This document shows positions 1,766-19,185 of a stretch of DNA of 45,130 bases, piece by piece. The translations under genes were made by a program, and so were the position numbers. Positions within the stretch are counted from its first letter, which is position 1. Each line of letters begins with the position of its first letter. Below the pieces are notes generated by a model that did not search any database, was not told the DNA's origin, and saw only the letters and a list, made by a program, of their open reading frames with translations. The stretch is from a virus (taxonomy: Duplodnaviria > Caudoviricetes): the IMG/VR virus record IMGVR_UViG_3300037043_000013, positions 1 to 45,130 of that record; one strand, written 5' to 3'.

Positions 1766-1771
1766 TGCTTC

Positions 1772-2555: not shown

Positions 2556-2935
2556 TACTCAGGTCGCTGCCCCGTTCGCGACTAGACCCGGACATAAGGT
2601 TGCGGACTCTGGGCACCGGTAGCAGCAACTTGGCGGCGGGGCGGCGACCTACTCGGTAACAAACCGTCGGCACTTGTTGACAAGTGTCGACGTTTCGACA
2701 CAACCGAATAGGACGACCTCTGCGGGAGCCCCGTCCGCGTCAACAAGAGGGGCACTCTAGTCACCCCAGACACCCGTTCCGGTGCCTAGCCTAGCGGGAT
2801 AGCGGAACCTAGCGCATGCAACACGGCAAAGGCACGGAGGATGAAAGCGGCTGCGGCTCCGTCAGGCAGACCCGGTCCTCCCCTGAAGAGGGGAGGACTC
2901 TGCCTACTGCCCACCATCAAGCAGCCTATACGAAC
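2556..2935 (+). ncRNA. Candidate large structured ncRNA (~380 nt, pseudoknotted)
   Basis: No credible ORF; stems 2561-2573/2638-2650, 2665-2676/2681-2692, 2875-2884/2889-2898, 2864-2870/2899-2905 plus long-range pairs. Confidence 0.6.
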
Positions 2936-2939
2936 ACCC

Positions 2940-2968
2940 TTGACAGGACACTCGATAGGTGATAGGAT
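2940..2968 (+). promoter_or_regulatory. Sigma70-type promoter, leaderless transcript
   Basis: TTGACA-17bp-TAGGAT, then 6 nt, then ATG 2975. Confidence 0.8.
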
Positions 2969-2974
2969 GACGAC

Positions 2975-3127
2975 ATGACCAAGACATACGCAGCCAGATA
3001 CATCTTGAGCCCGCGGGACGCAAACCTCCTGATCGACCTCTTTGGGTACGACATCCGTGCCGAGGGCGATGACAGCGTTTGGCACTCGCCTTGGGGGGCC
3101 GTTCTCATCGTCGTCGTGAGGTGGTAG
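2975..3127 (+). CDS. 50-aa hypothetical protein (not in ORF track)
   Basis: MTKTYAARYILSPRDANLLIDLFGYDIRAEGDDSVWHSPWGAVLIVVVRW*; starts at predicted +1 and abuts next ATG at 3129. Confidence 0.6.
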   Translation: MTKTYAARYILSPRDANLLIDLFGYDIRAEGDDSVWHSPWGAVLIVVVRW

Positions 3128-3128
3128 C

Positions 3129-3332
3129 ATGACCAAGCCAACCCGCAAGCGAGAGAAAGCCAAGCTGCCGACCGGCCGCTGCCCGGCGCACGCGCACTAC
3201 ACCGGCGTGCGCAAGCCGGACGGAAGCTGCGAGTACTGCATGCAGGTTTGGGAGCGGGCGAACGCAGCAGAAGAGAGCTATTTCGAGGCTATGAAGGAGA
3301 GGACCACGAATGCGCACATTGCACCAAGGTGA
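3129..3332 (+). CDS. Small Zn-binding hypothetical protein
   Basis: CPAH…CEYC. Confidence 0.55.
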   Translation: MTKPTRKREKAKLPTGRCPAHAHYTGVRKPDGSCEYCMQVWERANAAEESYFEAMKERTTNAHIAPR

Positions 3333-3543
3333 ACTGTACTCGATCGACAAGCGTGCGCCGCTGGCCGGCCAACTGGAGTGGGCGCACAAGCGGTTCCGGC
3401 TGAAGCACAAGAGTGAGCCGGTCGACGTCCGCTGGAACCCGGGGGCGTACAAGGACGACACGCTGGCCGACAAGCCGGCGGTGGACAAGAGCGTGCCGCC
3501 CGGGCACGTGTGGTTGGAGTTGGCAAGCGGGCCGGGGGAGTAG
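3310..3543 (+). CDS. Hypothetical protein
   Basis: GGAGAGG SD, operon packing. Confidence 0.55.
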   Translation: MRTLHQGELYSIDKRAPLAGQLEWAHKRFRLKHKSEPVDVRWNPGAYKDDTLADKPAVDKSVPPGHVWLELASGPGE

Positions 3544-3615
3544 GCTAGTACTGGGGGTAGGCAAACCCGTGGATGTGGGGGCTGAAATTGGTCGGAAATT
3601 GGTGCCTTGCAGCCC

Positions 3616-3644
3616 TTGACAGGATCTTGGAACGGTAGTAGGAT
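3616..3644 (+). promoter_or_regulatory. Sigma70-type promoter, leaderless transcript
   Basis: TTGACA-17bp-TAGGAT, then 6 nt, then GTG 3651. Confidence 0.8.
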
Positions 3645-3650
3645 GACAGC

Positions 3651-3956
3651 GTGATCTACTTGGCCGCCACCTTCTTAGTCTTGAACGCCTGCGACATCAT
3701 GCTGACCGCCAGCCTGCTGCCGCTGGGCGGCATCGAACTCAACCCGGTCGCCGTGTGGCTGTTCGCCAACGTCGGCATGGGCTGGGCGGCGGTCATCAAG
3801 ATGACAGCCTCCGGGCTGGTGGCGGCGTCGGCGTGCTGGCTGGCTCGGGAGTTCCCGAGGCTGGCCATGGTGACGATGCACGGGCTTACGATCCTGATGT
3901 TCGGAGTATGCACATGGAACTTAGCGATGATCGCGATGGCACTGTCAAGTTGGTAA
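3651..3956 (+). CDS. DUF5658-like membrane protein
   Basis: LNxxDxxLT…GGIELNP…K pattern, three TM segments. Confidence 0.65.
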   Translation: MIYLAATFLVLNACDIMLTASLLPLGGIELNPVAVWLFANVGMGWAAVIKMTASGLVAASACWLAREFPRLAMVTMHGLTILMFGVCTWNLAMIAMALSSW

Positions 3957-4141
3957 GCGAGGCCGTTGACGAGTTGGAGGACGAACTCCCGAAGTGGGAT
4001 GCGTCCGACGCCATGGTCGGCCACATGCGGCGCTGGCATGCTACCATGCTGGCTGCGCTGACCATCATCGAGTCGATGGGGAACGAGATCCACCGGCTCG
4101 AAGACGAAGTGAGCGTTCTGCGCTCAGGGAAGGACATCTAA
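3914..4141 (+). CDS. Hypothetical coiled-coil protein
   Basis: GGAG SD before ATG 3914; stop overlaps ATG 4141. Confidence 0.5.
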   Translation: MELSDDRDGTVKLVSEAVDELEDELPKWDASDAMVGHMRRWHATMLAALTIIESMGNEIHRLEDEVSVLRSGKDI

Positions 4142-4875
4142 TGCCCGCAGTCCGTGGTAACAAGCAGGCCAAGCACGAGGACTGGACGCCGAAGGAAGAC
4201 CGCCTTCTGTTGGCGCTCCGCAAGAAGAAGGCGTCGTACTCTGAGCTTGCGGCCTGCCTGCCGCGGCACTCGCAGGACGCCATCCGCCAGCACTACTTCG
4301 TGCTGACCCGCAACGAGCCGCACTGGACGGAAGCCGAGAACCTCGCCTTCTTCGATCTGGAGACGAGCCACCTGAAGGCCAACATCGGGATCCTGCTGTC
4401 GTGGGCCTTCAAGCTGCGGGGCGGCGGGGTGGTGTACGACGTCATAACCAAGAAGGACATCATGTCCGGGGTGATGGACAGGCGCATCGTGAAGTCGTTC
4501 ATGGCGGCCATCAAGCCGCTGGACGTCCTGATCGGATACTACTCGACGAAGTTCGACGTGCCGTTCATCCGCACCCGGGCCCTCATGCTGGGCATCCCGT
4601 TCCCCGCCTTCGGGCAGCAGTTCCACCATGACGTGTACTACAGCGCCAAGTGGAAGCTCGATCTGCACTCGAACCGGCTGGACGCAGTGTCGCATGCCCT
4701 CGGGTGCAAGAACGAGAAGACGCCGCTGGACATCAGCATCTGGCAGAAGGCGCAGTACGGCGACCCGAAGTGCCTCGCCTACATCGTGGAGCACAACAAG
4801 GCGGACGTCAGGGTTCTGGAAGAGGTCTTCGAGAAGCTGATGCCGTTCATCCAGATGAAGAGGAAGTCGCTGTGA
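4141..4875 (+). CDS. DEDD/RNase H-fold 3'-5' exonuclease with N-terminal Myb/SANT-like domain
   Basis: ExoI FFDLETS, ExoII YYSTKFDVPFI, ExoIII HNKADV; N-terminal WTPKEDRLLL. Confidence 0.8.
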   Translation: MPAVRGNKQAKHEDWTPKEDRLLLALRKKKASYSELAACLPRHSQDAIRQHYFVLTRNEPHWTEAENLAFFDLETSHLKANIGILLSWAFKLRGGGVVYDVITKKDIMSGVMDRRIVKSFMAAIKPLDVLIGYYSTKFDVPFIRTRALMLGIPFPAFGQQFHHDVYYSAKWKLDLHSNRLDAVSHALGCKNEKTPLDISIWQKAQYGDPKCLAYIVEHNKADVRVLEEVFEKLMPFIQMKRKSL

Positions 4876-5129
4876 AACTCGTGCCCATGGTCGACCCCGA
4901 GTTCTGGGTCCTCGGCATCATCGTGGACCGGGCGGCGCACTTTGCCAGCGTCCACCTTGGCCCGTTGGCGTTGGTCCTACAGATGGACCCGCCGCATGTT
5001 ACCATGCAGGACCTTGAGAAGGCCCAGCAGGAGCAGTACGAAGAGTGGATGGACGAACTGGAGCAGGCCGGCATGATCCAGAAGGTCCGAGTGGTCGAGC
5101 GGATGCCGAGCAGCAGCAAGGTGATGTGA
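4872..5129 (+). CDS. Hypothetical protein
   Basis: GTGA overlap with exonuclease stop. Confidence 0.5.
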   Translation: MKLVPMVDPEFWVLGIIVDRAAHFASVHLGPLALVLQMDPPHVTMQDLEKAQQEQYEEWMDELEQAGMIQKVRVVERMPSSSKVM

Positions 5130-5572
5130 TGGCAAAGAAGCCGACAGCCGCCGAGCGGGCAGAGAAAGCCCGCAACGACAAGGTCTACGAGGCCGAGTGG
5201 GCCGCCGGGACGGCCGTCCTGCGGCCGCTGCTGTCGGTGGTGGAGGCGCAGTCCTACGTCAACAGCGTGCTCAAGCTGCGGTCGTGGAAGAACCGGACGG
5301 GGATAGCCAAGATCGAGGTCGTCTACGTCCCTCAGTGGGATCGCGACTCCTGCATGGAAGACCATCGGACCATCGGAAGGATGGAACTGACGATGGGAAA
5401 CATGACCGAGGGCGTGGTGCTGCACGAGCTTGCGCACGCCGCCCGGGGCGACACCGACAACTCGCACCCGACCGAGTTTCTGGAAATGCTGATCTGGGTG
5501 ATAGGCGTCAGGGTGAACCAGTACATGGCCAACCGTCTCCGAGAAGAGTTGCACCTGAGGAAACTGCTATGA
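5129..5572 (+). CDS. SprT-like/zincin metalloprotein
   Basis: VVLHELAH…SHPTEF. Confidence 0.7.
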   Translation: MAKKPTAAERAEKARNDKVYEAEWAAGTAVLRPLLSVVEAQSYVNSVLKLRSWKNRTGIAKIEVVYVPQWDRDSCMEDHRTIGRMELTMGNMTEGVVLHELAHAARGDTDNSHPTEFLEMLIWVIGVRVNQYMANRLREELHLRKLL

Positions 5573-5718
5573 AGACGATGCTGAGGACTGAGGTCTACGC
5601 CGGGAAGCACTGGGACAGGTTCGGGCTGGGGGTCTTCCTTGACACCTGCGAGGGCCTCGGGATCAGTGTCGACTTCCTGTTCTGGTACTTCGGGTTCACG
5701 ACGTGGCGGGAGGGCTAG
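5569..5718 (+). CDS. Small hypothetical protein
   Basis: ATGA overlap; MKTMLRTEVY…. Confidence 0.5.
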   Translation: MKTMLRTEVYAGKHWDRFGLGVFLDTCEGLGISVDFLFWYFGFTTWREG

Positions 5719-5934
5719 ATGGGCAAGATCTTCATGAACCGTGGCCGCTACGTCTCCGTCACCGATCTGCGGACGGACAAGACGACCTTCCGCTCGATCG
5801 TGGTCGGCCTTGACGGCGGCCTGCGGATGTCCCGCCGGCGGCACAAGACGGCCGCCGCTGCGGAGGGATACGGGCTGGCGCTGACCATGCGGCTCGGCCG
5901 CATGCGTAGGCGGGGAGACAAGGAGGCACAGTGA
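5719..5934 (+). CDS. Basic hypothetical protein
   Basis: GGAGG SD, operon packing. Confidence 0.55.
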   Translation: MGKIFMNRGRYVSVTDLRTDKTTFRSIVVGLDGGLRMSRRRHKTAAAAEGYGLALTMRLGRMRRRGDKEAQ

Positions 5935-6206
5935 CCCGACTAGAGGCCAACATGCGGAACCTGCTGGCGGTGGACGGATGGTGGCACTTCCAGTTCTCGA
6001 AGTGCGACTCCATCAAGGAGACTGTTCGGGAGTTGAAGGACAGGATCCCAGAGGCCCAGAGGGAATACAGCAGGGACGGCAACGGCTGGCAATGGAGGGT
6101 CTTGACAAACAAGAAGAACTGGGTTACGCTTACCCATGTGTTCGACAACTTCCCGATCCTCGAAGAGGCTCTGCTCGTCGCCGAAAGGCAGAAAGGCAAG
6201 AAATGA
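5931..6206 (+). CDS. Hypothetical protein
   Basis: AGGAGG SD, GTGA overlap. Confidence 0.6.
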   Translation: MTRLEANMRNLLAVDGWWHFQFSKCDSIKETVRELKDRIPEAQREYSRDGNGWQWRVLTNKKNWVTLTHVFDNFPILEEALLVAERQKGKK

Positions 6207-6820
6207 AACGACTGTTCGCAATCCTGTTCTGTACGGCCCTGCTGGTCGGGGCGCTGTGGGTGCCGGCGGCCGCCAGCGTGCCGGCAACGCAGGCCACCTG
6301 CCCCAACAGCGCACCGTGGGTGAAGGTCGACGGCCTGACCGGCAAGACCTACGCCTACACGGCACCCGAGGGCAAGCTCGTTGCCGAGACTTGCTACAAG
6401 GCGGCAACGACCGTCGTGTATGCGGACGTGGACCCGGCGTCGTCGCCCGTGACTGTTACCAGCACGGTGACGAACAAGAAGGGCAAGGTACAGGACCTCA
6501 GCCACGCGTCCTTCCGGCTCGTGGACGATGAGGCTCCTCCTCCCCCTCCCCCTCCGCCGCCACCTCCTCCTCCGCCGCCTCCTCCGCCCAAGCACTGCAA
6601 GGTTCAGGGCGACATCTGGTATCAGTGCGAGAGCGGGGCATGGCTGTATGGAACCGGCCTGCTCCGTGATTGCGTGTGGTGCGGTGGGCTGACCGGCCGC
6701 CGTGTCGTGCGCGAGAGCTACGACTGCGGTGAGCACTACACTTGGTATGATGGCGGGGTCCGTGTCGAGGATCCCCCGCAGCCGCTGGGGCGCTACGCCT
6801 GCCCCGGCAACTGCAAGTAG
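6203..6820 (+). CDS. Secreted Cys-rich protein with poly-proline linker
   Basis: Signal peptide MKRLFAILFCTALLVGALWVPAAA; 18 consecutive Pro at 6536-6589. Confidence 0.7.
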   Translation: MKRLFAILFCTALLVGALWVPAAASVPATQATCPNSAPWVKVDGLTGKTYAYTAPEGKLVAETCYKAATTVVYADVDPASSPVTVTSTVTNKKGKVQDLSHASFRLVDDEAPPPPPPPPPPPPPPPPPPKHCKVQGDIWYQCESGAWLYGTGLLRDCVWCGGLTGRRVVRESYDCGEHYTWYDGGVRVEDPPQPLGRYACPGNCK

Positions 6821-6889
6821 CAAGCCTGCCGGCGGCGGCGTCACACCCGCCCCGGCACCTACGTCGTGAGTTGATAGGAGAGGTTGAGA

Positions 6890-7159
6890 ATGGGACACGA
6901 CATGACCCCCGACGAGTTGCGGAAGTGGGCCGAGAATGAAAGCGATGGAGTGCTCCTAATCCCGGCAAGTCGGTTGTTTGCCGCCGCCGACGCATGGAAG
7001 GCGGACCTAGAATGGCACAGAGAGCAGACCGAGGGGGTTTGGGCTGCTAACGCCGTCCTCCGCCAGCGGCTGGAGGCGGTTCGGGCGCTGGCGGGGGAGA
7101 ACTTCGACAGCCTGACTATTGAGCGCAAGCTGAACGCCGCCCTCGCAGGGAAGCCATGA
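6890..7159 (+). CDS. Mosaic-family small protein (PDELRK…AADAW…AALAG)
   Basis: Shares exact DNA blocks with 8343, 9733, 10195 and 10641 genes. Confidence 0.65.
   Translation: MGHDMTPDELRKWAENESDGVLLIPASRLFAAADAWKADLEWHREQTEGVWAANAVLRQRLEAVRALAGENFDSLTIERKLNAALAGKP
6979..7079 (+). repeat. 101-bp direct repeat, copy 1 (copy 2 at 10314-10414)
   Basis: tgccgccgccgacgcatggaagg…cggctggaggcgg identical in both copies by eye. Confidence 0.9.
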
Positions 7160-7701
7160 GACGAGGCCCGCAGGTCAACCCGTCCAAGGTCTACTACGAC
7201 CCGGGCGGCTGCAAGCGGGGGCACGATCCCTGCGTGCGCTGGCTGGCAAGCTGCAAGTGCCTGACGTGCGAGAAGGAATCTACTGGTCGTGGGGTCTTCG
7301 CTGAGGCCGACAGGGTGTGCCCGCGCTGCGGCTGCTACTTCGAGGAGGGACACGTCTGGGGCGGCAAGGGCGTGCTGTGCAAAGAGTGTGCCTCAACCGA
7401 CCCGAAGTGGGACTGCGGAACGACATTCCTGTGCGTTGAGGGAGACAAGCCGTTTATCGGCGGGCACTATCGCAAAGAGCAGATGGCGTGGTCGCTCATT
7501 CTGGAATCGTGGGACCTCGGCATGGTGTTCGAGGAGTGGCGAGGGGGAAAGTACTTCTGCTCGTGGCGTGTTGTCCCCAACACGGCCAACCGCCCGGTTC
7601 GTGACGTCCTGACGTCATGGCGCGAGGGCCATCGCCCGCCCATCATCCTAGAGCTCGTCGACCGCCAGCCCAAGGGCGACGGGAGGATCCTGAAGCCATG
7701 A
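7156..7701 (+). CDS. Cys-rich zinc-finger hypothetical protein
   Basis: CKRGH, CLTC, CPRC, CKEC. Confidence 0.6.
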   Translation: MRRGPQVNPSKVYYDPGGCKRGHDPCVRWLASCKCLTCEKESTGRGVFAEADRVCPRCGCYFEEGHVWGGKGVLCKECASTDPKWDCGTTFLCVEGDKPFIGGHYRKEQMAWSLILESWDLGMVFEEWRGGKYFCSWRVVPNTANRPVRDVLTSWREGHRPPIILELVDRQPKGDGRILKP

Positions 7702-7952
7702 CGAGGGACGCCGACCTGCGGCGCAAGTACGGCATCACGGCGGCGGACTACGACCGCATGCTGGCCGAGCAGGGCGGCGTGTGCGCCATCTGCGGGCGGC
7801 CGCCAAAGACAAGGCGGCTGAACGTGGACCACGACCACAGGACCGGCAAGGTGCGCGGAATCTTGTGCTGGCGCTGCAACAAGGGATTGCAGTTCTTTAG
7901 CGATGACGCTAAACATCTGAGAAAGGCGGCTGCGTATGTCCGATCTCGATGA
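7698..7952 (+). CDS. Endonuclease VII-family (His-Me) nuclease
   Basis: KYGITAADYDRML…QGGVCAIC…VDHDHRTGKVRGILCWRCN. Confidence 0.9.
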   Translation: MTRDADLRRKYGITAADYDRMLAEQGGVCAICGRPPKTRRLNVDHDHRTGKVRGILCWRCNKGLQFFSDDAKHLRKAAAYVRSR

Positions 7953-8346
7953 GTGGTTCGGCCCACGAGAGGTCACTGCGGAAGGCGAGATCGTCGTGCG
8001 GCGCACCAAGTTCCCGGCGGCCGAAGAGCCCATCCGCCCGATCTTAGACAGGATGCTGGCCATCTGGGAAGCCGAAGGCCGGCAGGCGGCCAAGGCATTC
8101 GTCGCCACGTGGACGCAGGGGGCACGGGACTACGTCGAGCAGGTCGACGGGGACGCTGACCGGTTCGAGCGGGCCATGCGGCTGCTGATTGCCAAGGGGC
8201 TGACGATCAGGAGCCCGCGCAGTATGATTGCGGTGGCGCTGGACATGAAGGCGAAGGAGCAGCCCAAGAAGACAGACTACGGCGTGTGCCCGGATTGCGG
8301 GGCACCATTCGGTTTGCACAACCGAGACTGCGAGGCTTACGAATGA
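7936..8346 (+). CDS. Hypothetical protein with C-terminal Zn ribbon
   Basis: CPDC…HNRDC; operon packing. Confidence 0.55.
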   Translation: MSDLDEWFGPREVTAEGEIVVRRTKFPAAEEPIRPILDRMLAIWEAEGRQAAKAFVATWTQGARDYVEQVDGDADRFERAMRLLIAKGLTIRSPRSMIAVALDMKAKEQPKKTDYGVCPDCGAPFGLHNRDCEAYE

Positions 8347-8654
8347 ACACCCCCGACGAGTTGCGGAAGTGGGCGAATGGCTATGAACTCCAGGGACGCC
8401 ATGAGATTGCGGGGCTGTTCCGTGCCGCCGCCGACGCATGGGGGAGGCTGGAGCTTCAATACAAGGCGGCAAACGAACACATCGGCAAACTGGCCGCCGA
8501 CCTGACCATCCTCCGCAAGCGGCTGGAGGCGGCGGAGAAGACCATCGGCACGTTGCAGGCAGACCGCATCAAAGCGCAGGCCACCATAGACCACTACCGG
8601 ACAATGCTGGAGGCGGTGGAGAAGCAACTGCCGCCGTCGGACATCCCGTTCTAG
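8343..8654 (+). CDS. Mosaic-family coiled-coil protein
   Basis: TPDELRKWA…AAADAW…LRKRLEAAEK. Confidence 0.65.
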   Translation: MNTPDELRKWANGYELQGRHEIAGLFRAAADAWGRLELQYKAANEHIGKLAADLTILRKRLEAAEKTIGTLQADRIKAQATIDHYRTMLEAVEKQLPPSDIPF

Positions 8655-8662
8655 GAGGACCC

Positions 8663-9445
8663 ATGAACCAACGCGTTGAATGCCCAACCGCCGCTGATGT
8701 CGAGAAGGCCCTGGCCAATGGCGACATCGCCATCGTCCGCTTCTCCGGTTGGATAACCGTGCGGGGGTCGGCGCACGTCGAGGCCCGGGGGTCGGCGCAC
8801 GTCGTGGCCTATGACTCGGCGCACGTCGTGGCCCGGGGGTCGGCGCACGTCGTGGCCTATGACTCGGCGCACGTCGTGGCCCGGTGGTCGGCGCACGTCG
8901 AGGCCTATGACTCGGCGCACGTCGTGGCCTATGACTCGGCGCACGTCGAGGCCCGGGGGTCGGCGCACGTCGAGGCCTATGACTCGGCGCACGTCGTGGC
9001 CTCCAAACTTGTGGCCGTTCACCGGCACGGAAACACCCCGATGGTCAAGGGTGGAGTCATCATCCAGGTCGATCCACCGAAGACCGCCGCCGAATGGCTC
9101 GACCTCTACGGCATCGAAGTCGTCGACGGCATCGCCGTTCTCTACAAGGCGCTGGACGACAGGTTTGTCAGCCCGCGCGGAATGTCCTACGCGCCCGGCA
9201 CGACCCCCTCGGCCCCCGATTGGGACGGTGGCAAAGCAGAGTGCGGAGGCGGGCTGCACTTCTCGCCTTCGCCTTTCATGGCGAAGGAGTTTGCCCCGGA
9301 GGCCAGGCGCTTCGCGGCTTGCCCCGTCCTCGTCTCCGAGATAGTCGTTCACGAGAACGCGACCTATCCCAATAAGGTAAAGGCCCCGCGGTGCATCGCG
9401 CCGGTTTGGGAAGTTGACGCCTATGGGAACGAGGTGCGTGCGTGA
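8663..9445 (+). CDS. Octapeptide-repeat protein with conserved phage-type C-terminal domain
   Basis: AGGAGG SD; 10x SAHV[EV]A[RG/YD]; C-terminal ECGGGLHF…KVKA. Confidence 0.75.
   Translation: MNQRVECPTAADVEKALANGDIAIVRFSGWITVRGSAHVEARGSAHVVAYDSAHVVARGSAHVVAYDSAHVVARWSAHVEAYDSAHVVAYDSAHVEARGSAHVEAYDSAHVVASKLVAVHRHGNTPMVKGGVIIQVDPPKTAAEWLDLYGIEVVDGIAVLYKALDDRFVSPRGMSYAPGTTPSAPDWDGGKAECGGGLHFSPSPFMAKEFAPEARRFAACPVLVSEIVVHENATYPNKVKAPRCIAPVWEVDAYGNEVRA
8768..9001 (+). repeat. 24-bp coding tandem repeat, 10 units
   Basis: tcggcgcacgtcg[ag/tg]gcc[cggggg/tatgac]. Confidence 0.95.
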
Positions 9446-9541
9446 CCGATCCGCTGCCGGCGCTGTCTGACATCCCGCCTTGTGCGGCTGGGCAGTACGC
9501 ACTCGATGCCGAGCCCTAGAGCGGCGGGCGGCGGGAAACAT

Positions 9542-9672
9542 GGGAGAGCGGCGTGGTGAGACACGCTTACCGAGTAGACCGCTACGGGGTGCGTATGTGC
9601 CCCGTCTCGACCGAGCCCGACCGAAAGGTATCGTGCAGTGATGCGGAAGCCGGATCATTCCGGCCTCTCCCA
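9542..9672 (+). ncRNA. tRNA-like RNA 2
   Basis: Acceptor GGGAGAG/CTCTCCC + A; T stem GCCGG/CCGGC with degenerate loop ATCATT; collinear with 1772-1903 with compensatory changes. Confidence 0.75.
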
Positions 9673-9732
9673 ACTTGCAGGCGGGGCGGCGGAAACTTAC
9701 TCAACGTCGTGAGTAGTTCGCAGGAGGCTGGA

Positions 9733-9924
9733 ATGGGACACGACATGACCAAGGATGTTGGTGATACGACCAAGCCTGTTGGTGGCCCAGACGAGTTGCG
9801 GAAGGCTATCGACAAACTGCTTCCATTGGACGAGTTTGACTATGAGAAAGCCGAGGCGTGGAATGCCGGCCGTGCCGCCGCTCAGCGGCGGGGCGGCGGA
9901 ACACAGGAGACCGACGATGACTGA
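9733..9924 (+). CDS. Mosaic-family small protein
   Basis: AGGAGG SD; MGHDMTKDVGDTTKPVGGPDELRKA. Confidence 0.55.
   Translation: MGHDMTKDVGDTTKPVGGPDELRKAIDKLLPLDEFDYEKAEAWNAGRAAAQRRGGGTQETDDD
9740..9807 (+). repeat. 68-bp direct repeat, copy 1 (copy 2 at 10190-10257)
   Basis: acgacatgaccaaggatgttgg…gcggaaggct identical in both copies. Confidence 0.9.
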
Positions 9925-10883: not shown

Positions 10884-10942
10884 CGTTCATTGTCTTTTTC
10901 TTGATCGGCTTTATGGTCGGGAGTTTGCTGCTCCGTGACTAA
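10880..10942 (+). CDS. 20-aa single-TM peptide
   Basis: MTFIVFFLIGFMVGSLLLRD*; GGAG SD, ATGA overlap. Confidence 0.45.
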   Translation: MTFIVFFLIGFMVGSLLLRD

Positions 10943-12037: not shown

Positions 12038-12240
12038 TCGAGGTCAAGGTCTACCGGGTCAACAAGGCGAAGCCGCTGGTCTACATGGCGGAGACGGAAG
12101 AGTCGGCCAACCAGTTCATCGCCGGCGTGGTCGAACACGGGTTCACGTTCCTGTCCGAGGGCAAGTCGGTGTACTGGCCGCCGCACGCCATCGTGGAAGT
12201 GACGAGGGTGTACACGCCAGAGAAAGAGAAGGGGGCCTAG
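12034..12240 (+). CDS. Hypothetical protein
   Basis: AAGGAGG SD, ATGA overlap. Confidence 0.6.
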   Translation: MIEVKVYRVNKAKPLVYMAETEESANQFIAGVVEHGFTFLSEGKSVYWPPHAIVEVTRVYTPEKEKGA

Positions 12241-12249
12241 CGGCCCCCT
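12230..12249. terminator. Hairpin at convergence of the two arms
   Basis: AGGGGGCC-TAGC-GGCCCCCT; A-rich upstream gives a U-tract on the minus strand. Confidence 0.6.
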
Positions 12250-12252
12250 GTC

Positions 12253-12468
12253 TCACTGGGCCACGTCCTCACATGGGCGGGCCGTCCCGATGTACTCGAC
12301 CTCGCTGATGGAGGCCTTGCGGAAGTGGCCCTGCTGGTTGTCGTCGTCGCCGTAGAAGAGCTCGGCGGCGGCGATGGCCTTCTGGATGTCGCCCGGGTGC
12401 GGGCTGTACTGCTCGATCTCGACGGCGAACAGGCTGTTGCGGATGCGGTAGATCGCTAGGTACTTCAT
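12253..12468 (-). CDS. Hypothetical protein
   Basis: GGAG…TGACATG start context. Confidence 0.6.
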   Translation of the reverse strand: MKYLAIYRIRNSLFAVEIEQYSPHPGDIQKAIAAAELFYGDDDNQQGHFRKASISEVEYIGTARPCEDVAQ

Positions 12469-12469
12469 G

Positions 12470-12742
12470 TCATCGCTCCAGTAGGCGGGCCAGCATGACG
12501 GCTGCCTCGCCTCGGGTCAGGGGCCGGTCTGGGCAGTACATGGCGGGCTCGGTCTGGCAGCCAGCCGTCAGTCCGGCCAAGCGGATTTCCTCGATGGCCC
12601 ACGCGTACGGGTGGCCGACAGTGTCGGTGAACGGGCCGACGAGGGCGCGGGGGCTGTTGTCGATGGCGAGCCCGATGAAGACGCCCAGCACTATTGACGC
12701 CACCACCACGGCCGCGATCAGAACCTTGTCTCCTGTATCCAT
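12470..12742 (-). CDS. Membrane-anchored S-layer homology (SLH) domain protein
   Basis: N-terminal TM; FTDT.GH…AIE..…G…YCPDRPLTRGEAAVML. Confidence 0.75.
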   Translation of the reverse strand: MDTGDKVLIAAVVVASIVLGVFIGLAIDNSPRALVGPFTDTVGHPYAWAIEEIRLAGLTAGCQTEPAMYCPDRPLTRGEAAVMLARLLER

Positions 12743-12743
12743 G

Positions 12744-12860
12744 TCATCCTCCCATGACTAGCAGCCAGCAGGCTGCAAGGGCGAACGGCAGCACAAGCCA
12801 CAGCAGTTGGCCCAGCTTGTACCACAGCACGATCTCAAGGTCGGGTCCTATCTTCTTCAT
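12744..12860 (-). CDS. 38-aa membrane peptide (not in ORF track)
   Basis: MKKIGPDLEIVLWYKLGQLLWLVLPFALAACWLLVMGG*; GGAGGATGACATG context. Confidence 0.55.
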   Translation of the reverse strand: MKKIGPDLEIVLWYKLGQLLWLVLPFALAACWLLVMGG

Positions 12861-12861
12861 G

Positions 12862-12954
12862 TCATCCTCCTGCGGCAAGCCACATGCAGGCTTGCACGAA
12901 TACGATCACGGCTAGGCAGGTGTACACGGCGGGCAGGAATCGGTCATCGCCCAT
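12862..12954 (-). CDS. 30-aa membrane peptide (not in ORF track)
   Basis: MGDDRFLPAVYTCLAVIVFVQACMWLAAGG*; GGAGG SD; overlaps 3' end of 12912-13346. Confidence 0.45.
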   Translation of the reverse strand: MGDDRFLPAVYTCLAVIVFVQACMWLAAGG

Positions 12955-13346
12955 GCGGCCTCCCAAAGGTTTGCGAGCAGCAGGCGCACGCCCCGCTCGC
13001 GGTAGTGGTTGGCGGATTCCACGATCTCACGGCTGTACCCTCGGAGATTGTACACCCAAACCAGCGTGCCGGCAAGGGTGGTGGGGCTCATGTCTTGGTC
13101 CAGAATGCAGCACAGCAGCGCCCCGTCGACCTCTGGCATGTTAGCATGCGGCTCGTCAACGGGCTGGCTGGCGGGCGGCCGCTGGAAGGTTGACGTGTCG
13201 GAGGTGGCCCAGTCGCCAACCATCCCGCCAGCCGTGGCCACCTGTCGGCCGCAGTTCGTACACAGGTTGAACCGGAAGCCTGCCCACTCGTACTCGGTTA
13301 GCGTGTACCCGCAGCGCGGGCAGATCATGGGCCCGGGGTTGGTCAT
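12912..13346 (-). CDS. Zn-ribbon hypothetical protein
   Basis: CPRC…CTNC; GGAGGACTGACATG context. Confidence 0.55.
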   Translation of the reverse strand: MTNPGPMICPRCGYTLTEYEWAGFRFNLCTNCGRQVATAGGMVGDWATSDTSTFQRPPASQPVDEPHANMPEVDGALLCCILDQDMSPTTLAGTLVWVYNLRGYSREIVESANHYRERGVRLLLANLWEAAWAMTDSCPPCTPA

Positions 13347-13347
13347 G

Positions 13348-13908
13348 TCAGTCCTCCTTGTCCAGAACGGTGATGTTCCCGTTGTTGGCCCCGTCGATGG
13401 TGTGGGCCGGGCCGAAGTAGGCCCCGGGCAGCTTGCCGGTGTCGACCGCTCGCCGCAGCCGGGCGGCGTTCTCGGTGCCCCATGCAATCAGGGCGGACGG
13501 TGCGCCAGACGATGACTTGGGCTGCGTGCCGTCCGGGCGGCAGAACATGATGCGCTTGGCCGGGAACAGGTAGGCCGTGGCCGTGGGGAAGATGACGTCT
13601 TGCCACAGCCGCGTCTCCACCCGGGCGAAGATGAGGGCGATCCCGTTCCCGTGTTCGGCTAGCCGCTGTATCCAGACGGCGGTGTTGGGCCCGTAGGGCG
13701 GATTGCAGTACACGTTCCCGTACCAGTCCTCCTTGAGCCCGTCAGTCTCCGGCGGGCCGAAGTGTTCGGCTGCCGTGGGCCACGGCTGGGTGGCCGAGGC
13801 GCATGGGTCAAGGTCGAACGGCCCCAGTGCGTCGATGATGTACTTCGGCGTTATCCAGTCGTTCGTCTGCCCCTCGTAGGGGTTCTCGTGTCCGAAGCCG
13901 TCGCTCAT
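13348..13908 (-). CDS. Phage DNA N6-adenine methyltransferase (phage Dam family)
   Basis: NDWITP…FDLDPCAS…VYCNPPYG. Confidence 0.9.
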   Translation of the reverse strand: MSDGFGHENPYEGQTNDWITPKYIIDALGPFDLDPCASATQPWPTAAEHFGPPETDGLKEDWYGNVYCNPPYGPNTAVWIQRLAEHGNGIALIFARVETRLWQDVIFPTATAYLFPAKRIMFCRPDGTQPKSSSGAPSALIAWGTENAARLRRAVDTGKLPGAYFGPAHTIDGANNGNITVLDKED

Positions 13909-13909
13909 G

Positions 13910-14125
13910 TCATCCCGCCAGTTCGTCTACGGCCTTCTGCGCCTTGGCCAGCAGCTTGTCGACCTTCTTGCCTTCGGCCCGCATGGCGCGGGCGTAGCGC
14001 ACGTCCTCGTGCTCCTCGCACACATCCGCCTCGGCCTCATACGCTTCTCGTATGGCCCGGCGCACGTCATCAATGAACAGGTTCACCCCGGTTCCGTCTC
14101 GCAGAATGTCGCCTAGCTTGTCCAT
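13910..14125 (-). CDS. Hypothetical protein
   Basis: MDKLGDILRDG…; GGAGGACTGACATG context. Confidence 0.6.
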   Translation of the reverse strand: MDKLGDILRDGTGVNLFIDDVRRAIREAYEAEADVCEEHEDVRYARAMRAEGKKVDKLLAKAQKAVDELAG

Positions 14126-14126
14126 G

Positions 14127-14351
14127 TCAGTCCTCCTGCCTTCCGTGAAGGTCTTCCCACAGCTTGTAGTCGTAGTTGTACTTGGCCATGTACGGGATGC
14201 GGCTGGTATGGCTTCGGCGGTAGGCCTCGACGGCATCCAGCCCCATGGCGTACTCGGGGGTCCACCGGAAGTCGGTAAACTCGGTCCGGTCTAGGACCTC
14301 AGACAGGGCGGTGGCCAGCCGGGCGGCGTGGACGGCTTCTGGGTTGGTCAT
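14127..14351 (-). CDS. Hypothetical protein
   Basis: Operon packing, GGAG SD. Confidence 0.6.
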   Translation of the reverse strand: MTNPEAVHAARLATALSEVLDRTEFTDFRWTPEYAMGLDAVEAYRRSHTSRIPYMAKYNYDYKLWEDLHGRQED

Positions 14352-14352
14352 G

Positions 14353-14535
14353 CTAGGCTCCCTTCGGCTTTACGTAGTGGTCGCAGCCCTCGTCATCCTT
14401 GACGATCGTGTGCGCGTCATCGGGCAGCTTGCCCTCTCGGCTGACTACTTCGTGCCTGCCTGTCTGGCGGTCCACCCGGTGCCAGTTAGGGCCGACCTTG
14501 ACGTGGTAGTGGGCGTCGGTGTCACGCGGTGGCAT
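14353..14535 (-). CDS. Hypothetical protein
   Basis: MPPRDTDAHYHVKV…; fills gap. Confidence 0.5.
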   Translation of the reverse strand: MPPRDTDAHYHVKVGPNWHRVDRQTGRHEVVSREGKLPDDAHTIVKDDEGCDHYVKPKGA

Positions 14536-14953
14536 AGCGGGCCTTCCATTCCTTGCTGGCAGCGGCGCGCTCGGCCCGGTAGGCCTTCTTGATAGCGGCT
14601 TTCGCCCGGCAGCGTGCGCGCCAGCCGCGGGCCCAGCCGCTCGGGTCCTTCTGATCGTCAAGCGGCGCGAGCTCATCCAGCAGGTCGATGTAGCTGGCGG
14701 GGGCCCCGTTGATGTTCGGGCCGACCGACTCGTCCATATCCTTGTACCCGAGGTTGTAGTAGCTGCGGGGGGCATGCTTGAGCATGATGGCCACCCCGAA
14801 CACGTCACCGGTGCGCTTGGCGCGCAGGACGGCGTAGGCCTCGGTCCAGCCGCGGGAGCAGAAGCGCAGAATCTCCACGCCCTCGCCCCATTCATCCTGA
14901 AAGAAGGATTGCATTGTCTGACCGTACCCCTTGTTCGTGAACATCCAGCCCAT
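14522..14953 (-). CDS. DUF6927-like protein
   Basis: MGW…YKDMDESVGP…AP…LL..L…WA..WR.RC. Confidence 0.7.
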   Translation of the reverse strand: MGWMFTNKGYGQTMQSFFQDEWGEGVEILRFCSRGWTEAYAVLRAKRTGDVFGVAIMLKHAPRSYYNLGYKDMDESVGPNINGAPASYIDLLDELAPLDDQKDPSGWARGWRARCRAKAAIKKAYRAERAAASKEWKARYATA

Positions 14954-15026
14954 GTTTGCTCTCCAGCCGTGCCAGATAGGCGGCCCTCGCAGGGGGCCCG
15001 GGCAGCCGGGCCCGCCGCGGCGGACG

Positions 15027-15233
15027 TCATCCTTGGTAGGCCTGCTCGCCCAGCCACGCGGCCTCGGGCAGGTAGTCATCCGGGTGTTGAATGTGCCAGC
15101 GCAGGTCGCAGCTTGCCTCATCCTCGGTTGCGAACGGTCCGATGGGCTCGCCGTCCCACTGGTACCACCAGCGGCCTCGGGCACGGTATACCGGGTTGAA
15201 CCTCACGGGAACAGGACTGAATCGGTGGCACAT
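15027..15233 (-). CDS. Hypothetical protein
   Basis: WWY.WD…IGPFATEDEA. Confidence 0.6.
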   Translation of the reverse strand: MCHRFSPVPVRFNPVYRARGRWWYQWDGEPIGPFATEDEASCDLRWHIQHPDDYLPEAAWLGEQAYQG

Positions 15234-15234
15234 G

Positions 15235-15627
15235 CTAGCCCCCCTTCTGGTTGTGGGTCCACTGCGGCCACGTGCCGCTGCGGTCGAACGTCATGTCGAG
15301 CTCGCGCTCGATAACCGGAATGACAAGCTCAGTGATATCCTCGGCATTGTCATAGATCGCCCCCATCGGCATGCCGGGCAGATCCCCGTCCTCAGCGTAG
15401 TCCCCGACGATGGCGATGCGGTCCCCGGCCCAGCGGCCGATAACGGGGTCCGGGTTGAGGTCCCCGCCTCCCCTCGGCTCGGGCATGTTTGCGGTCAAGA
15501 TCAGTACCGCGTCGCTGATGGTGGGGTGGTTGGCCAGAATCTCCCACAGCTTGGCCTCGTTCCCCATCGAGTGAGGGTTGACGGATTCCATTTTGTCTAG
15601 GTTGACGGCTTTCCAGTACTGCCCCAT
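15235..15627 (-). CDS. Conserved phage hypothetical protein
   Basis: MGQY…VNLDK.E…KLWE…GRWAGDRIAIVGDY; GGAGG SD. Confidence 0.7.
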   Translation of the reverse strand: MGQYWKAVNLDKMESVNPHSMGNEAKLWEILANHPTISDAVLILTANMPEPRGGGDLNPDPVIGRWAGDRIAIVGDYAEDGDLPGMPMGAIYDNAEDITELVIPVIERELDMTFDRSGTWPQWTHNQKGG

Positions 15628-15719
15628 GTTGCACCTCCATTGGCAGCCGGTTCGCTGCTCGCTGGGGGCCCACGATCTACCTGCGTGGGTCCCCGGCGGC
15701 CAGTGCCCGGCACTGGCGG

Positions 15720-16232
15720 TCAGTCTAGGCGGCCCCCGGCGTAGGCATGCGTACCAGCGGGCAGGCCTGCGCGCAGGACGTCGGCGTAGGCCTCGGCATA
15801 GGCGGCTTTGCGGTCATAGGACTGGCCACCGGCACTGATCCAAAGCTGGACGCCTCCGCCGTAGGCCTTACGGAAGCCCGCATTCTTGACGGCCCAGCGG
15901 GCAGCGGATGACGTCCCCGGCGTGATGGTCACCCAACCGAACCCGCACACGCCTTCGGGAACGTACCACGATTGTACCACCGGAGAATTGTCGTTGAATG
16001 CTTCCGATCGCTGCTGCACCACCATGGGCTCGGGCACGGCAGCCACCAGCGCGGCCTCGCCAGCGGCCTCGGCCCGGGCAAACAGATCAGCAAAGCCCGC
16101 GTACCGGTCGGCCCGTTCGGCCTCGGCCATGCCCACGCGGGCTTTCCATGCCACCCGGGCGGCCTCGCGGTGGGCCTTGCAGTACTTGGACTTGCCGACG
16201 GTCGGCTCGTTGCAATCAGGCGTCGCGCACAT
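15720..16232 (-). CDS. Conserved phage hypothetical protein
   Basis: AAGGAG SD; GVCGFGWV…QSYDRKAAYA.A.A.VL. Confidence 0.7.
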   Translation of the reverse strand: MCATPDCNEPTVGKSKYCKAHREAARVAWKARVGMAEAERADRYAGFADLFARAEAAGEAALVAAVPEPMVVQQRSEAFNDNSPVVQSWYVPEGVCGFGWVTITPGTSSAARWAVKNAGFRKAYGGGVQLWISAGGQSYDRKAAYAEAYADVLRAGLPAGTHAYAGGRLD

Positions 16233-16256
16233 TGTAGACTCCTTTCGGCTGCATTC

Positions 16257-16322
16257 ATCCTAACCGATCAGCCCGGCGGGCGGCAGTGACAAATGTCACC
16301 CGCCGGGCATGACAAACGTCAC
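16257..16322 (-). promoter_or_regulatory. Putative activator-dependent promoter with CRP/FNR-like boxes
   Basis: -10 TAGGAT (16262-16257); GTGA-N6-TCAC at 16286-16299; second box 16309-16322. Confidence 0.55.
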
Positions 16323-16523
16323 CTATCGGCGCGAGTACTCCATGCCGCACATGCGGCAGCGGTACCACGTGAGCATGCCCAGCTGGCCCATGGGCTCGTT
16401 GACATGCCCGCATGCCGGGCACTGTGCGGGCATGGGCTCGGGCTCGGGCATGGGCTCGGGCTCGGGATACAGCGCGCTGTAGTAGTCCACCATATCAACC
16501 GGGGCAGTGCGTCTGGCATTCAT
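16323..16523 (-). CDS. Small Zn-ribbon protein
   Basis: GGAGG SD; PEPEPM x2; CPAC…CRMC. Confidence 0.55.
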   Translation of the reverse strand: MNARRTAPVDMVDYYSALYPEPEPMPEPEPMPAQCPACGHVNEPMGQLGMLTWYRCRMCGMEYSRR

Positions 16524-16621
16524 TCTGTCAACCTCCCGTTCGGGCCGGTCTGCCCGGGCTCGCGGCCGACGGTAGGGTCGGCCGCGTGCGCGGGCGGGCA
16601 TGCTACCATGCCCGCGGGCGG

Positions 16622-17347
16622 CTATACTCCGATGCGATCCCGGGCATTGTCTAGGGCCGGTTGCGTGCCGTGGACTACCAGTGCATACGATTCTCCGCGC
16701 ATGCATGCCCGTTCTGATTCTGCCGTGGTGTAGACTGGGACGTTAGTCATAGCATCCGGCGGGATGACGATAGCGACAGGATAGCCATGCGCCACATTGT
16801 CAAAGCGTCCGCCATGCGAGACGATCAACCGCATGTTAGCGGGCAGCGTAGCACGGGACGGGAGCCAGTGCGCAACCTTAGTGTACCCGTAGAACGTGAT
16901 ACCCGGATGCTGGCGTGCTACCGCAATCCACGCGTGCAAGTACTCGCGTGTAAGGTAGTCACCAGAAGAATGGATGCGCAGCACGCGCAGTGCGGGATAC
17001 TCAGCCAGCATGCTAGTCAACATGCGCACCATGGCGGGCACGTCTCGCATGATAGGCCTAATCATGTCCAGATTGTGCCATCGGAAAGCGCGTACGGTAG
17101 GGTGGACCGCTTCGCCAGACGCGGCATAGCAGCGGAAGCGGGCATGCGGACCGTCGGACAGGTGGCCAGTCTGGCGATCAGCACGCGCCATGCATTCGTT
17201 TGCTGCCGGGCATGTCCAACCGGCGGGCAGGTCAAAGCTGCCTACAGCGGACCGCGGGACGCGTAAGCGGCGGGCAAGGTCGGCTAGCTTGGAATTGCCA
17301 AATGCTATCTCGGGCAGGTCAGTCCACGGGCGGGTACGGGCGGGCAT
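16622..17347 (-). CDS. GP88-family (radical-SAM-like) phage protein
   Basis: GNSKL…SFDLPAG.TCP.A..C…CYA…RIHSSGD…YGYTK. Confidence 0.8.
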   Translation of the reverse strand: MPARTRPWTDLPEIAFGNSKLADLARRLRVPRSAVGSFDLPAGWTCPAANECMARADRQTGHLSDGPHARFRCYAASGEAVHPTVRAFRWHNLDMIRPIMRDVPAMVRMLTSMLAEYPALRVLRIHSSGDYLTREYLHAWIAVARQHPGITFYGYTKVAHWLPSRATLPANMRLIVSHGGRFDNVAHGYPVAIVIPPDAMTNVPVYTTAESERACMRGESYALVVHGTQPALDNARDRIGV

Positions 17348-17420
17348 TGTCTACTCCAGTCTACGGCGGGCGGTATGCCCGGGCTCGCGGACGTGGTAGG
17401 GAATGTAAGACATTGTATCC

Positions 17421-17630
17421 TCAGTGCGCCAGGCACTTGGGGCAGTACACGGGCGCTTTCTTGGTCTTGAGGACATAGCCCGAGTCAATCGATGCGGCGG
17501 GTACGAGGTCCTGTATCCACTGAGTAGGGCGATAGCCGCACGTAGCTCTAGGGCGCAGGTCCGGAGTCAGTAGATCGTACTCGTGGGCGGTCTTGGATTG
17601 CGGCGTGCACATGAAGGCTTTGGCGGTCAT
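17421..17630 (-). CDS. Small hypothetical protein, first gene of leftward arm
   Basis: GGAGG SD; CPKC. Confidence 0.55.
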   Translation of the reverse strand: MTAKAFMCTPQSKTAHEYDLLTPDLRPRATCGYRPTQWIQDLVPAASIDSGYVLKTKKAPVYCPKCLAH

Positions 17631-17654
17631 TGTATCCTCCCGTGTTGTGCCTAC

Positions 17655-17697
17655 ATGATAGCCACTAACCGTCAGTAAGGCACGTAACGAATGTCAC
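17655..17697 (-). promoter_or_regulatory. Putative activator-dependent promoter
   Basis: -10 TATCAT (17660-17655); box GTAA-N6-TCAC 17684-17697 at same offset as the 16257 promoter. Confidence 0.5.
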
Positions 17698-17719
17698 CTA
17701 TCGCGCCATGACATTAGCT

Positions 17720-18300
17720 TGACATATGAGCGGGACGGCCGGCGGCAGGTTCATACCGGCCTAGCCGCGGCTGGCATGCTACCGGCAGGATTGCCGCCGG
17801 GCGGGCTGCTGGGCTCGATCTACTGCGCGCCCAGACGCCTCGGGGGCTCGGACCTAGCTACAAGTCCCTGGCAAGGTCCTGGGGGTTCTCATCAGGGAGA
17901 GTAAGCATCGGGGGCCGGCAGGCTGGCGGGCGGGCAGGCAGCGGGCAGGCAAGGCGGCGGGCAGGCGGGCGATCAGGCGGCGCTGGGGCAGCCCGCCACT
18001 ACTCGCGGGCAGCAGGCATGCAGGCTCCCGTGCTGCCCGTCGGCTAGCCGTCGGCGCAGGCAGGCTAGCGGCTGGCGCATGCTGCCGGCATGACAGCGGC
18101 TAGCCGACGGGCCTGCCGCTGCGCGGGCATGCGGGCAGGTCGGCAGCATGCGGGCGGCTAGCATGCGGGCATGCATGCGGGCACGCTGTAGGCTGTGGGC
18201 AGGCTGTGGGCTGGGGAGCAGAGAGAGAGAATGTATGAGAAAGCGCCCGCCCGTACGTCGGTGTGTACGTTGGCGGGCAGGTGGGGGGTTACTACCTCGG
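17720..18300. other. Low-complexity G-rich non-coding region (candidate genome end or origin)
   Basis: Runs of GGCA/GGCG, GCATGC and CTAG; no credible ORF; lies between divergent arms. Confidence 0.45.
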
Positions 18301-18495
18301 AATCTTGCGAGGCAAATGGTACCAACTGGTGGTCAGCCGAACCCCGCAACCCGGTAGTCTGTTTTCCCGTGCTACCGCCGACGCCGGCACGGCAACCGAT
18401 CGCCGTCAGCCGTGGTCGCAGGATGCCGCCAGCGGGCGGCCGGCGGACTTGCGTGCGGGGGTGGTGTCGTGGTAGGATTGTGGGCGGAGGCGCAT

Positions 18496-18945
18496 ATGAC
18501 CCACAAGAACCCAGAGGATGCGAAGGCATACGCCCGCAGATACTACGAGGCCTACAGGGAGGAGCGGAGGGAGTACGACCGCAGCCGACCAAAGCGCGAC
18601 TGGGACTATGAGTACAGCCGTGTGTACCGGCACAAGCGCCGGGCCGAGGTCCTGATCCACTACGGGGGAAGGTGCGCCTGCTGCGGCGAGGATCGCTACG
18701 AGTTCTTGGCGATCGACCACATCAACGGAGGCGGGAACAGGGAGCGCAAAGAGCTTGGGGCCAAGGAGGCCGGCAGCGAACTGTGGCTCAGGCTCAAGCG
18801 GCTCGGCTACCCAGACGGCTTCCGTGTCCTCTGCCACAACTGCAACAACGCCATCGCCCACTACGGCCGTTGCGCCCACGAGCATACGGCCGGCCCGCCT
18901 GCTCACGTTCTCGCCGGCAGCCTGCCGCTTTCCGTCCCCCGCTAA
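18496..18945 (+). CDS. HNH endonuclease
   Basis: YGGRCACCGE…LAIDHINGGG…VLCHNCN; GGAGG SD; TGGTAGGAT -10 upstream. Confidence 0.85.
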   Translation: MTHKNPEDAKAYARRYYEAYREERREYDRSRPKRDWDYEYSRVYRHKRRAEVLIHYGGRCACCGEDRYEFLAIDHINGGGNRERKELGAKEAGSELWLRLKRLGYPDGFRVLCHNCNNAIAHYGRCAHEHTAGPPAHVLAGSLPLSVPR

Positions 18946-18977
18946 CAAACAGCCCGCCGACGGGGCTGTCGGCGGGC
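18944..18977 (-). terminator. Intrinsic terminator
   Basis: Minus strand GCCCGCCGAC-AGCCCC-GTCGGCGGGC-TGTTTGTT. Confidence 0.75.
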
Positions 18978-19089
18978 GTACCGCTCGCCCGAAGGCGGCG
19001 GGGGATGCCGGCCGGCTGGCCCGCAGGGGGCCAAGCGGGGGTATACGGCCGGCGGGTTGGCGGGCTGTCAGGTCGCTGCTATGCCCGCC
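18944..19089 (-). ncRNA. Candidate ~145-nt sRNA with own promoter and terminator
   Basis: Promoter 19096-19124(-); four stem-loops including a UUCG tetraloop; terminator hairpin with U-rich tail. Confidence 0.7.
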
Positions 19090-19095
19090 AAGACA

Positions 19096-19124: not shown

Positions 19125-19185
19125 GGGCGTTGCGCAAAGCGAGCAACGGGGCCGGTTTACACAACAGGCGTAGTGGATGGCGCAC

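Follow-up and report, generated by a model that had tools for sequence, protein, structure and literature searches.

A possible antisense folding switch in a phage: a 12-base match between a candidate small RNA and a structured region 16.5 kb away

Do two RNAs encoded 16.5 kb apart on the same phage genome act on each other? The question is raised by the IMG/VR record IMGVR_UViG_3300037043_000013, a linear virus contig (Caudoviricetes) that is 97% complete (CheckV) and that we analysed over its whole length of 45,130 nucleotides (the window; G000 among the genomes compared). The 12-base sequence TCAGGTCGCTGC occurs in it at 2559-2570 and at 19068-19079. The first copy stands at the start of a structured region of about 380 nt (2556-2935) that follows a phage gene (1944-2555), mostly within the 5' arm of a predicted helix, P1, and the second in the 5' hairpin of a candidate small RNA (sRNA) read from the minus strand. 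We consider it possible, if somewhat short of an even chance, that the sRNA is a co-transcriptional antisense folding switch acting on the structured region, which is perhaps an RNA-based origin; coincidence is about as likely. If the switch is real, antisense control of a phage non-coding element from a distance and through a short seed would be a new layout, and searches of the open-access literature listed no comparable system.

Both copies of the 12-mer, first reported by a first-pass annotation of this DNA, are confirmed and have no further copy on either strand; the exact match stops at 12 bases, and the orientation of the copies allows RNA-RNA pairing. That annotation also had the sRNA transcribed from the minus strand, and the signals agree: the candidate has its own promoter and intrinsic terminator (Table 1), and its folding compared with shuffled sequences is strand-specific (z -4.8 on the minus strand, -1.9 on the plus strand), its start at 19089 being placed from the promoter spacing. 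With its 5' seed, own promoter and intrinsic terminator it has, as far as sequence signals go, the attributes of a trans-encoded base-pairing sRNA. The complementary bases are sRNA nt 11-22, within 17 nt closed by the 5' stem, and the best duplex of this 17-nt loop among 8969 genome windows is formed with the target site in P1 (-25.0, the next being -24.3; all duplex, fold and co-fold energies given here are predictions in kcal/mol). On the target side, the folding of P1 is likewise strand-specific (z -3.5 vs. -1.2 on the other strand), and the cis partner of the target at 2641-2650, with one G.U pair, is as previously described.

The mechanism proposed at first, displacement of this cis partner by the sRNA, is not borne out for a finished P1: the 12-bp sRNA-target duplex is predicted at -23.3 vs. 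-33.8 for P1, the folded helix exposes a toehold of only 2 nt, and P1 survives in the co-fold of 2553-2660. Six added pairs between sRNA nt 2-7 and 2574-2579 would bring the extended duplex to -33.9 to -35.0, level with P1. The cost of freeing the target varies with the end of the transcript (6.2-10.2 for ends at 2575-2640, 18-20 at 2650-2720, and 11-15 at 2800-2935), and co-folding favours the sRNA duplex by 4.5 for 2553-2630 and by 6.4 for the full region. Because a finished P1 offers a 2-nt toehold and costs more to open, binding of the sRNA would presumably have to be co-transcriptional; on these energies, the sRNA would more readily capture the arm as it emerges than displace the finished helix.

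The steps of such a switch might be as follows. The promoter at 1737 would read through gene 1944-2555 into 2556-2935 (we infer this read-through; no U-tract terminator was called on the plus strand in 2056-2940), and a nascent CAG-GUCG-CUG mini-hairpin would meet the CGAC apical loop of the sRNA. Pairing would then extend over the 12 bp and further, between 2574-2579 and sRNA nt 2-7, so that the 5' stem of the sRNA comes apart. Capture would have to fall within the 70-80 nt before the 3' arm of P1 is made, P1 would thereby be prevented, and the freed G-rich 3' arm could re-pair with the conserved core downstream or with template DNA. The output would most likely be primer or origin activity, because the region replaces an initiator gene (see below), or else read-through; this is the weakest step, and we regard it as unlikely overall.

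Besides the short toehold and the persistence of finished P1, several results weigh against the switch, beginning with the sRNA itself. The 12/12 complementarity of the first hairpin loop to the 5' arm of P1 stands, but the loop is not open as first described: sRNA nt 12-14 pair with nt 19-21 (a 3-bp inner helix, pairing probability at least 0.95), half of the 12 nt are thus paired internally, the open part of the hairpin is a 4-nt apical loop plus flanks, and opening it is predicted to cost 3.4 kcal/mol. A genome-wide pairing scan, suggested by the first-pass annotation as a check, gives the target first place with the 17-nt loop, as stated above, but a scan with the complete 31-nt hairpin leaves the target site outside the top 8 windows. 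Downstream of P1, the variable module at 2750-2866 (z +1.7) and the core of the complete relative G001 (z +0.1) fold no better than shuffled sequences, and the alignment of the three available core sequences, with 89% of cells paired, holds two one-sided changes and zero compensatory ones.

The chance level of the match depends strongly on how the question is framed. An earlier estimate of below 1e-3 holds for the narrow test, in which 2/20000 simulated 383-nt regions matched the 20-nt loop stretch over at least 12 bases, but not for wider ones: 192/20000 such regions matched when the whole sRNA was the query, 480/20000 shuffled loops matched at least 12 bases anywhere in the genome, and, in 1500 shuffles each, a complementary 12-mer arose among four RNA-like segments in 5.3% (P 0.053) and among eight non-coding segments in 36%. 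Two 11-mer complements among the four RNA segments, as observed here, were obtained in 1.5% of shuffles (P 0.015). The window is also rich in repeats, with 329 direct repeats of at least 12 nt vs. 91-264 in Markov simulations, and matches of at least 12 bases between gaps number 13 in the window, 4 in G001 and 0-1 in seven others under a crude definition of gaps. Taken together, these statistics make the match suggestive, short of decisive. Further sRNA complements (10 nt at 2632-2641 and 8 nt at 2657-2664) were dismissed as short, GC-rich or terminator-derived.

Comparison with relatives revealed that the 380-nt region, previously taken for a single conserved RNA, does not hold together. The metagenome locus L001 (1004 bp, ending 285 nt past the gene and too short to show any sRNA) encodes a protein 88% identical to the 1944-2555 product, is identical to the window at 2556-2577 and in the 3' arm of P1, and keeps the core, but differs in the P1 loop and in the module after about 2750. 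The relative G001 (G001:C1, 45.9 kb, complete, with terminal repeats in its viral record G009 and a capsid 84% identical to that of the window) shares the core and the downstream module with L001 (82% over 176 nt), yet shows no P1 and no match to the sRNA, a LAGLIDADG gene occupying the HNH/sRNA slot. As the core is present in G001 in the absence of both P1 and the sRNA, it does not depend on the switch. Contigs from sequencing runs, compared at 80% likeness (4/22 listed runs per comparison), add to these points against the switch: a contig from X11 follows the window over 2079-2646 and then departs, one from X6 carries 2769-2936 without P1 behind about 500 unaligned bases, and a second from X6 keeps 19099-19211, the promoter pair, followed by other sequence instead of the sRNA. 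Because the modules occur apart in L001, G001, X6 and X11, the region is, judged from sequence, a mosaic in which P1 travels with the upstream gene, having been seen solely beside it (window, L001 and X11), and the core recurs separately. Among the differences listed for the X11 contig, T2575C converts a U.G to a C-G pair in P1. The 30 differing letters of the X6 promoter contig look like a leader with a ribosome-binding site; among them is the 8-mer GGGGCGGC from the 3' arm of P1. Relatives were also seen in runs X7, X12 and X16.

Searches for a second example of the pair were negative. Apart from the same strain (run X5), no sequence with both RNAs was found among the relatives searched, and neither was an independent homologue of the sRNA; blastn of the sRNA gave terminator-level matches only, in 7 mycobacteriophage records. 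The sRNA body is without coverage in X6, X11 and X13, although missing cover alone proves nothing. No RNA data set was among the sequencing runs listed; run X8, labelled RNA-Seq, is probably DNA, and contigs cannot show expression. No loci for gene 1944-2555 and the terminase were found among viral contigs and none of the 1944-2555 family among genome contigs; blastn of the large region gave no match in annotated phages, and 2540-2960 none among 72,556 plasmids. Of 401 genomes of G001's class, only G001 matches beyond about 50 bases. Four DNA patterns run against viral contigs returned, respectively, 17 matches (17/17 chance), 12 matches (11/12 chance, the other being G001's own record), 8 loci (7 distinct places read, all chance), and 0.

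The explanation that rivals the switch most closely, with a probability about equal to it, is that the match arose by chance or is a neutral leftover of recombination in a genome rich in GC and in repeats, with the sRNA acting elsewhere (on a host RNA or a protein) and P1 being a stand-alone 3' hairpin of gene 1944-2555. The two wider shuffle tests, the abundance of repeats and gap matches, and the occurrence of modules and promoter without their partner in G001 and run X6 all speak for it. Less easily reconciled with coincidence are that the sRNA has a single large loop and the match falls there, oriented for pairing and with the best genomic partner of that loop, that the target arm is identical in L001, and that a second RNA, tRNA-like RNA 2, matches the neighbouring helix. 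Should the match be due to chance, the window would still contain an sRNA absent from the catalogues, a pair of tRNA-like RNAs, and a structured region of modular make-up that occupies an initiator slot.

The second RNA deserves description here. The 11 nt at 2649-2659, next to P1, are the exact complement of 9567-9577 in an anticodon-arm-like part of tRNA-like RNA 2, and the duplex of the two is predicted at -18.2 vs. -9.5 for the cis helix P2; that is, here as at the sRNA target, a trans RNA complements the strand better than its cis partner does. We read tRNA-like RNA 2 by eye as presumably tRNA-Leu(UAG)-like. The tRNA-like RNAs 1 and 2 are paralogous, each with an acceptor stem and a T arm, and neither was called by ARAGORN or Rfam. 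They share an insert that may form a pseudoknot and whose hairpin differs between the two by a compensatory change. A variant of tRNA-like RNA 1 is present in run X11, and a promoter in G001 is followed by a tRNA-like RNA of smaller size (L051:7548-7637, minus).

What the structured region might do is suggested by what surrounds it in other genomes. Neither the 59 + 14 open reading frames (ORFs) examined in the window nor the 30 early ORFs of G001 gave a match to an initiator, loader, helicase, primase, polymerase domain or integrase. Both genomes were also negative for HTH_36 and in tblastn with eight proteins from relatives (initiators, loaders and helicases). An initiator-like gene with a loader or helicase is present in 6/7 other near-complete relatives (G004, G006, G007 and G008 by PHROGs; G013 and G016 by HTH_36 and tblastn, weakly in G016) and the core in 0/7. 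G007 has a distant homologue of gene 1944-2555 (E 5.5e-6), behind which come a leader and then the initiator gene; that is, the initiator slot of G007 is the place filled by the structured region in the window. The 136-aa protein at 7936-8346, common to the window and G001 (136-142 aa), is weakly similar to the C-terminal part of the G004 initiator (E 0.0043, probability 8%), with no likeness to the G007 or G008 initiators and with Atlas structure rows below its threshold. Standing against an origin, G012 shows neither the core nor a detected initiator (11/18 listed ORFs scanned), and the window, at 97% completeness, is without the junction between tail and lysin genes, and an initiator may be missing from the record. 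Given that two genomes of one lineage represent one event and that the window is incomplete, the pattern of core present and initiator absent is only a lead. An origin at this place, if that is what the element is, would account for the start of replication in a 45-kb phage in which neither an initiator nor a helicase or primase can be recognised, and would provide a testable function for a class of uncatalogued phage RNAs. A fuller version, in which the structured RNA stands in for the DNA-binding initiator, the host helicase loader is still recruited by a headless initiator domain, and two distantly encoded RNAs control firing, the sRNA by opening P1 and the tRNA-Leu mimic by opening P2, appears to us quite improbable.

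Three further explanations were weighed. It is improbable that the sRNA binds behind the stop codon of gene 1944-2555 and alters mRNA stability or 3' processing with no role in replication. P1 begins a few bases past the stop codon and is seen only with this gene, and bacterial sRNAs usually act through short pairing in trans (PMC5415839); against this, finished P1 is hard to invade, the site does not coincide with a ribosome-binding site, and the region occupies the initiator position of G007. Still less likely is that the 12-mer is a protein-bound DNA site. It does contain a CAG-N4-CTG dyad, with one copy 11-22 bases behind the start of the sRNA promoter (-19124), which is a usual distance for an operator, and the other beside the structured region, but the half-sites have only 3 bp, no third copy is found at the other six promoters, the second copy is 370 nt from the next promoter, and folding is strand-specific with G.U pairs, that is, RNA-like. 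That the sRNA guides the HNH endonuclease, whose gene adjoins it, to DNA at 2559-2570 is hardly credible, given that the enzyme is one of the short HNH proteins that stand alone, that another copy lies near 43435-43773, where no such RNA was seen, that G001 has a LAGLIDADG gene in the slot, that self-targeting would cut the phage, and that Rfam gave no match.

Among known systems, ColE1 RNA I/RNA II provides cis-encoded antisense control of RNA folding (PMC5043065), and the likeness drawn to it by the first-pass annotation holds for the mode of action but not for membership. In both cases, a nascent structured RNA is, or here would be, refolded in a transcription window by a short hairpin RNA that has a promoter and a terminator of its own (PMC5043065); further, uncharged tRNA is reported to bind the ColE1 RNAs, and a tRNA-shaped RNA may bind here too (PMC4555960). 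No initiator protein is seen here, but G000 is incomplete and carries a weakly initiator-like C-terminal domain. However, RNA I lies opposite its target and is fully complementary to it over about 110 nt, whereas the two elements here are 16.5 kb apart with a longest exact complement of 12 nt, and neither an Rfam match to RNA I/ColE1 origins nor a blastn match among 72,556 plasmids was found. A ColE1-type origin is also characterised by a persistent RNA-DNA hybrid, RNase H cleavage and extension by Pol I. The antisense RNAs of phages P1, P7, N15 and P4 and of PLE (IIR/SviR) are similar in having short complementarity to their own non-coding targets (PMC7567579). The sRNA described here has one site, behind a stop codon, and no Rfam c4 match. 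By contrast, the c4 and CI RNAs pair with gene leaders, often several. In its mode of action the candidate switch would thus resemble ColE1 RNA I or phage c4, without being a member of either family. Attenuation in pT181 and pIP501 likewise involves co-transcriptional capture that chooses between two folds, but is cis-encoded with a U-tract terminator ahead of rep (PMC5415839); here, no plus-strand terminator was called in 2556-2940 and no rep gene follows P1. The GOLLD and ROOL RNAs share with the structured region a position near tRNA-like genes and an unassigned function (PMC7567579, PMC12286853) but have a conserved fold of 600-800 nt, as opposed to a 380-nt mosaic with no Rfam match, and no known trans partner. 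PMC5333043 and PMC5389517 provided background only.

Table 1. Features discussed in the text, in order of position in the window.
Feature	Position	Strand	Remarks
Sigma-70-type promoter	1737..1765	+	Would drive tRNA-like RNA 1, gene 1944-2555 and read-through into the structured region
tRNA-like RNA 1	1772..1903	+	Acceptor stem of 7 bp, T arm and a large insert; missed by ARAGORN/Rfam
Gene for 203-aa phage protein, no known family	1944..2555	+	P1 starts 6 nt past the stop codon
sRNA target	2559..2579	+	Exact 12-mer at 2559-2570 plus 6 possible pairs at 2574-2579
P1 5' arm	2561-2575	+	Contains most of the sRNA target; pairs with 2636-2650
P1 3' arm	2636..2650	+	G-rich; cis competitor of the sRNA; identical in L001
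Exact 11-nt complement of anticodon-arm-like part of tRNA-like RNA 2 (9567-9577)	2649..2659	+	
Conserved core	2652..2750	+	Helix P2, 12-bp palindromic hairpin, GCGG/CCGC hairpin; common to L001 and G001
Variable module	2750..2866	+	Another module in its place in L001 and G001
Strong 3' hairpin without U tract	2864..2905	+	Followed by 19-nt motif
136-aa protein with weak likeness to a phage replication initiator (C-terminal domain)	7936..8346	+	Without DNA-binding domain
tRNA-like RNA 2	9543..9673	+	64-nt insert
HNH endonuclease gene	18412..18945	+	Likely start 18496; convergent on sRNA terminator
Candidate sRNA, 146 nt	18944..19089	-	5' hairpin with 12-mer, two more hairpins, intrinsic terminator; sequence signals
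sRNA intrinsic terminator	18977..18952	-	U-rich run directly after
sRNA promoter TTGACA-17-TAGGAT	19096..19124	-	Back to back with + promoter 19186-19214

Other identities considered for the structured region were rejected. Rfam at gathering level and ARAGORN gave no match in the window, and Rfam at E<=5 across 1-20000 gave three weak matches, none within the large region or the sRNA region. A group II intron, RNase P RNA and tmRNA are therefore disfavoured (Rfam and ARAGORN negative), as is a group I intron, for which Rfam was negative and a likeness of GACUA/UAGUC to the P7 of such introns is in the wrong order and missing from L001. Neither an Rfam match nor a reverse transcriptase match was found for a retron or a diversity-generating retroelement, a hidden protein in 2556-2935 is contradicted by frames broken differently across the three sequences, and pseudoknots of the P1 loop with downstream complements in 2750-2866 carry no weight as evidence (P 0.09-0.44). 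A structural model of the 1944-2555 protein (pLDDT 65) had no match in the PDB at E<=0.001.

Several minor observations concern the core and the sequence behind it. The central loop of the palindrome is inverted between the window (2665-2692) and L001:829-856, and the right arm of the G001 palindrome (L051:7126-7162) is the reverse complement of the L001 left flank, flips that look as if they came from template switching in a DNA hairpin. In the palindrome region, 9-mers starting with TTGT resemble DnaA boxes. The 19-nt motif at 2902-2920 is kept in G001 (L051:6512-6536), where, as in the window, 19 nt separate it from the TTGACA that comes next, although an extra promoter and ORF are present upstream there. 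Among the other relatives, G012:C1 has at about 25450-25620 (minus) a promoter and then a structured, apparently non-coding stretch unlike the core, and G008:C1 (about 27900-28000) and G013:C1 (about 23430-23520; both minus) have RNAs of about 100 nt with no coding part, each behind a promoter-like site, with tmRNA-like 5' and 3' ends and a G3.U70 pair. ARAGORN at a relaxed score called a permuted tmRNA at G013 c[29675,29910].

Finally, the gene content of the window includes a terminase, an SU10-type capsid, a lysin and two HNH-type genes. Its early genes contain an exact 101-nt duplication (6979-7079/10314-10414), a 78-nt one at 95% (9735-9812/10185-10262) and a 24-nt tandem coding repeat at 8714-9049, which suggests that internal recombination is frequent. 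A long GC-rich, repetitive non-coding stretch at 17730-18490, with an inverted repeat at 17334-17362/18228-18256, precedes the HNH gene and is possibly a packaging or terminal region. Among the structural genes, several at 20343-22368 and 39234-39929 show weak sialyltransferase-like or MptE-like matches together with glycan-binding domains.

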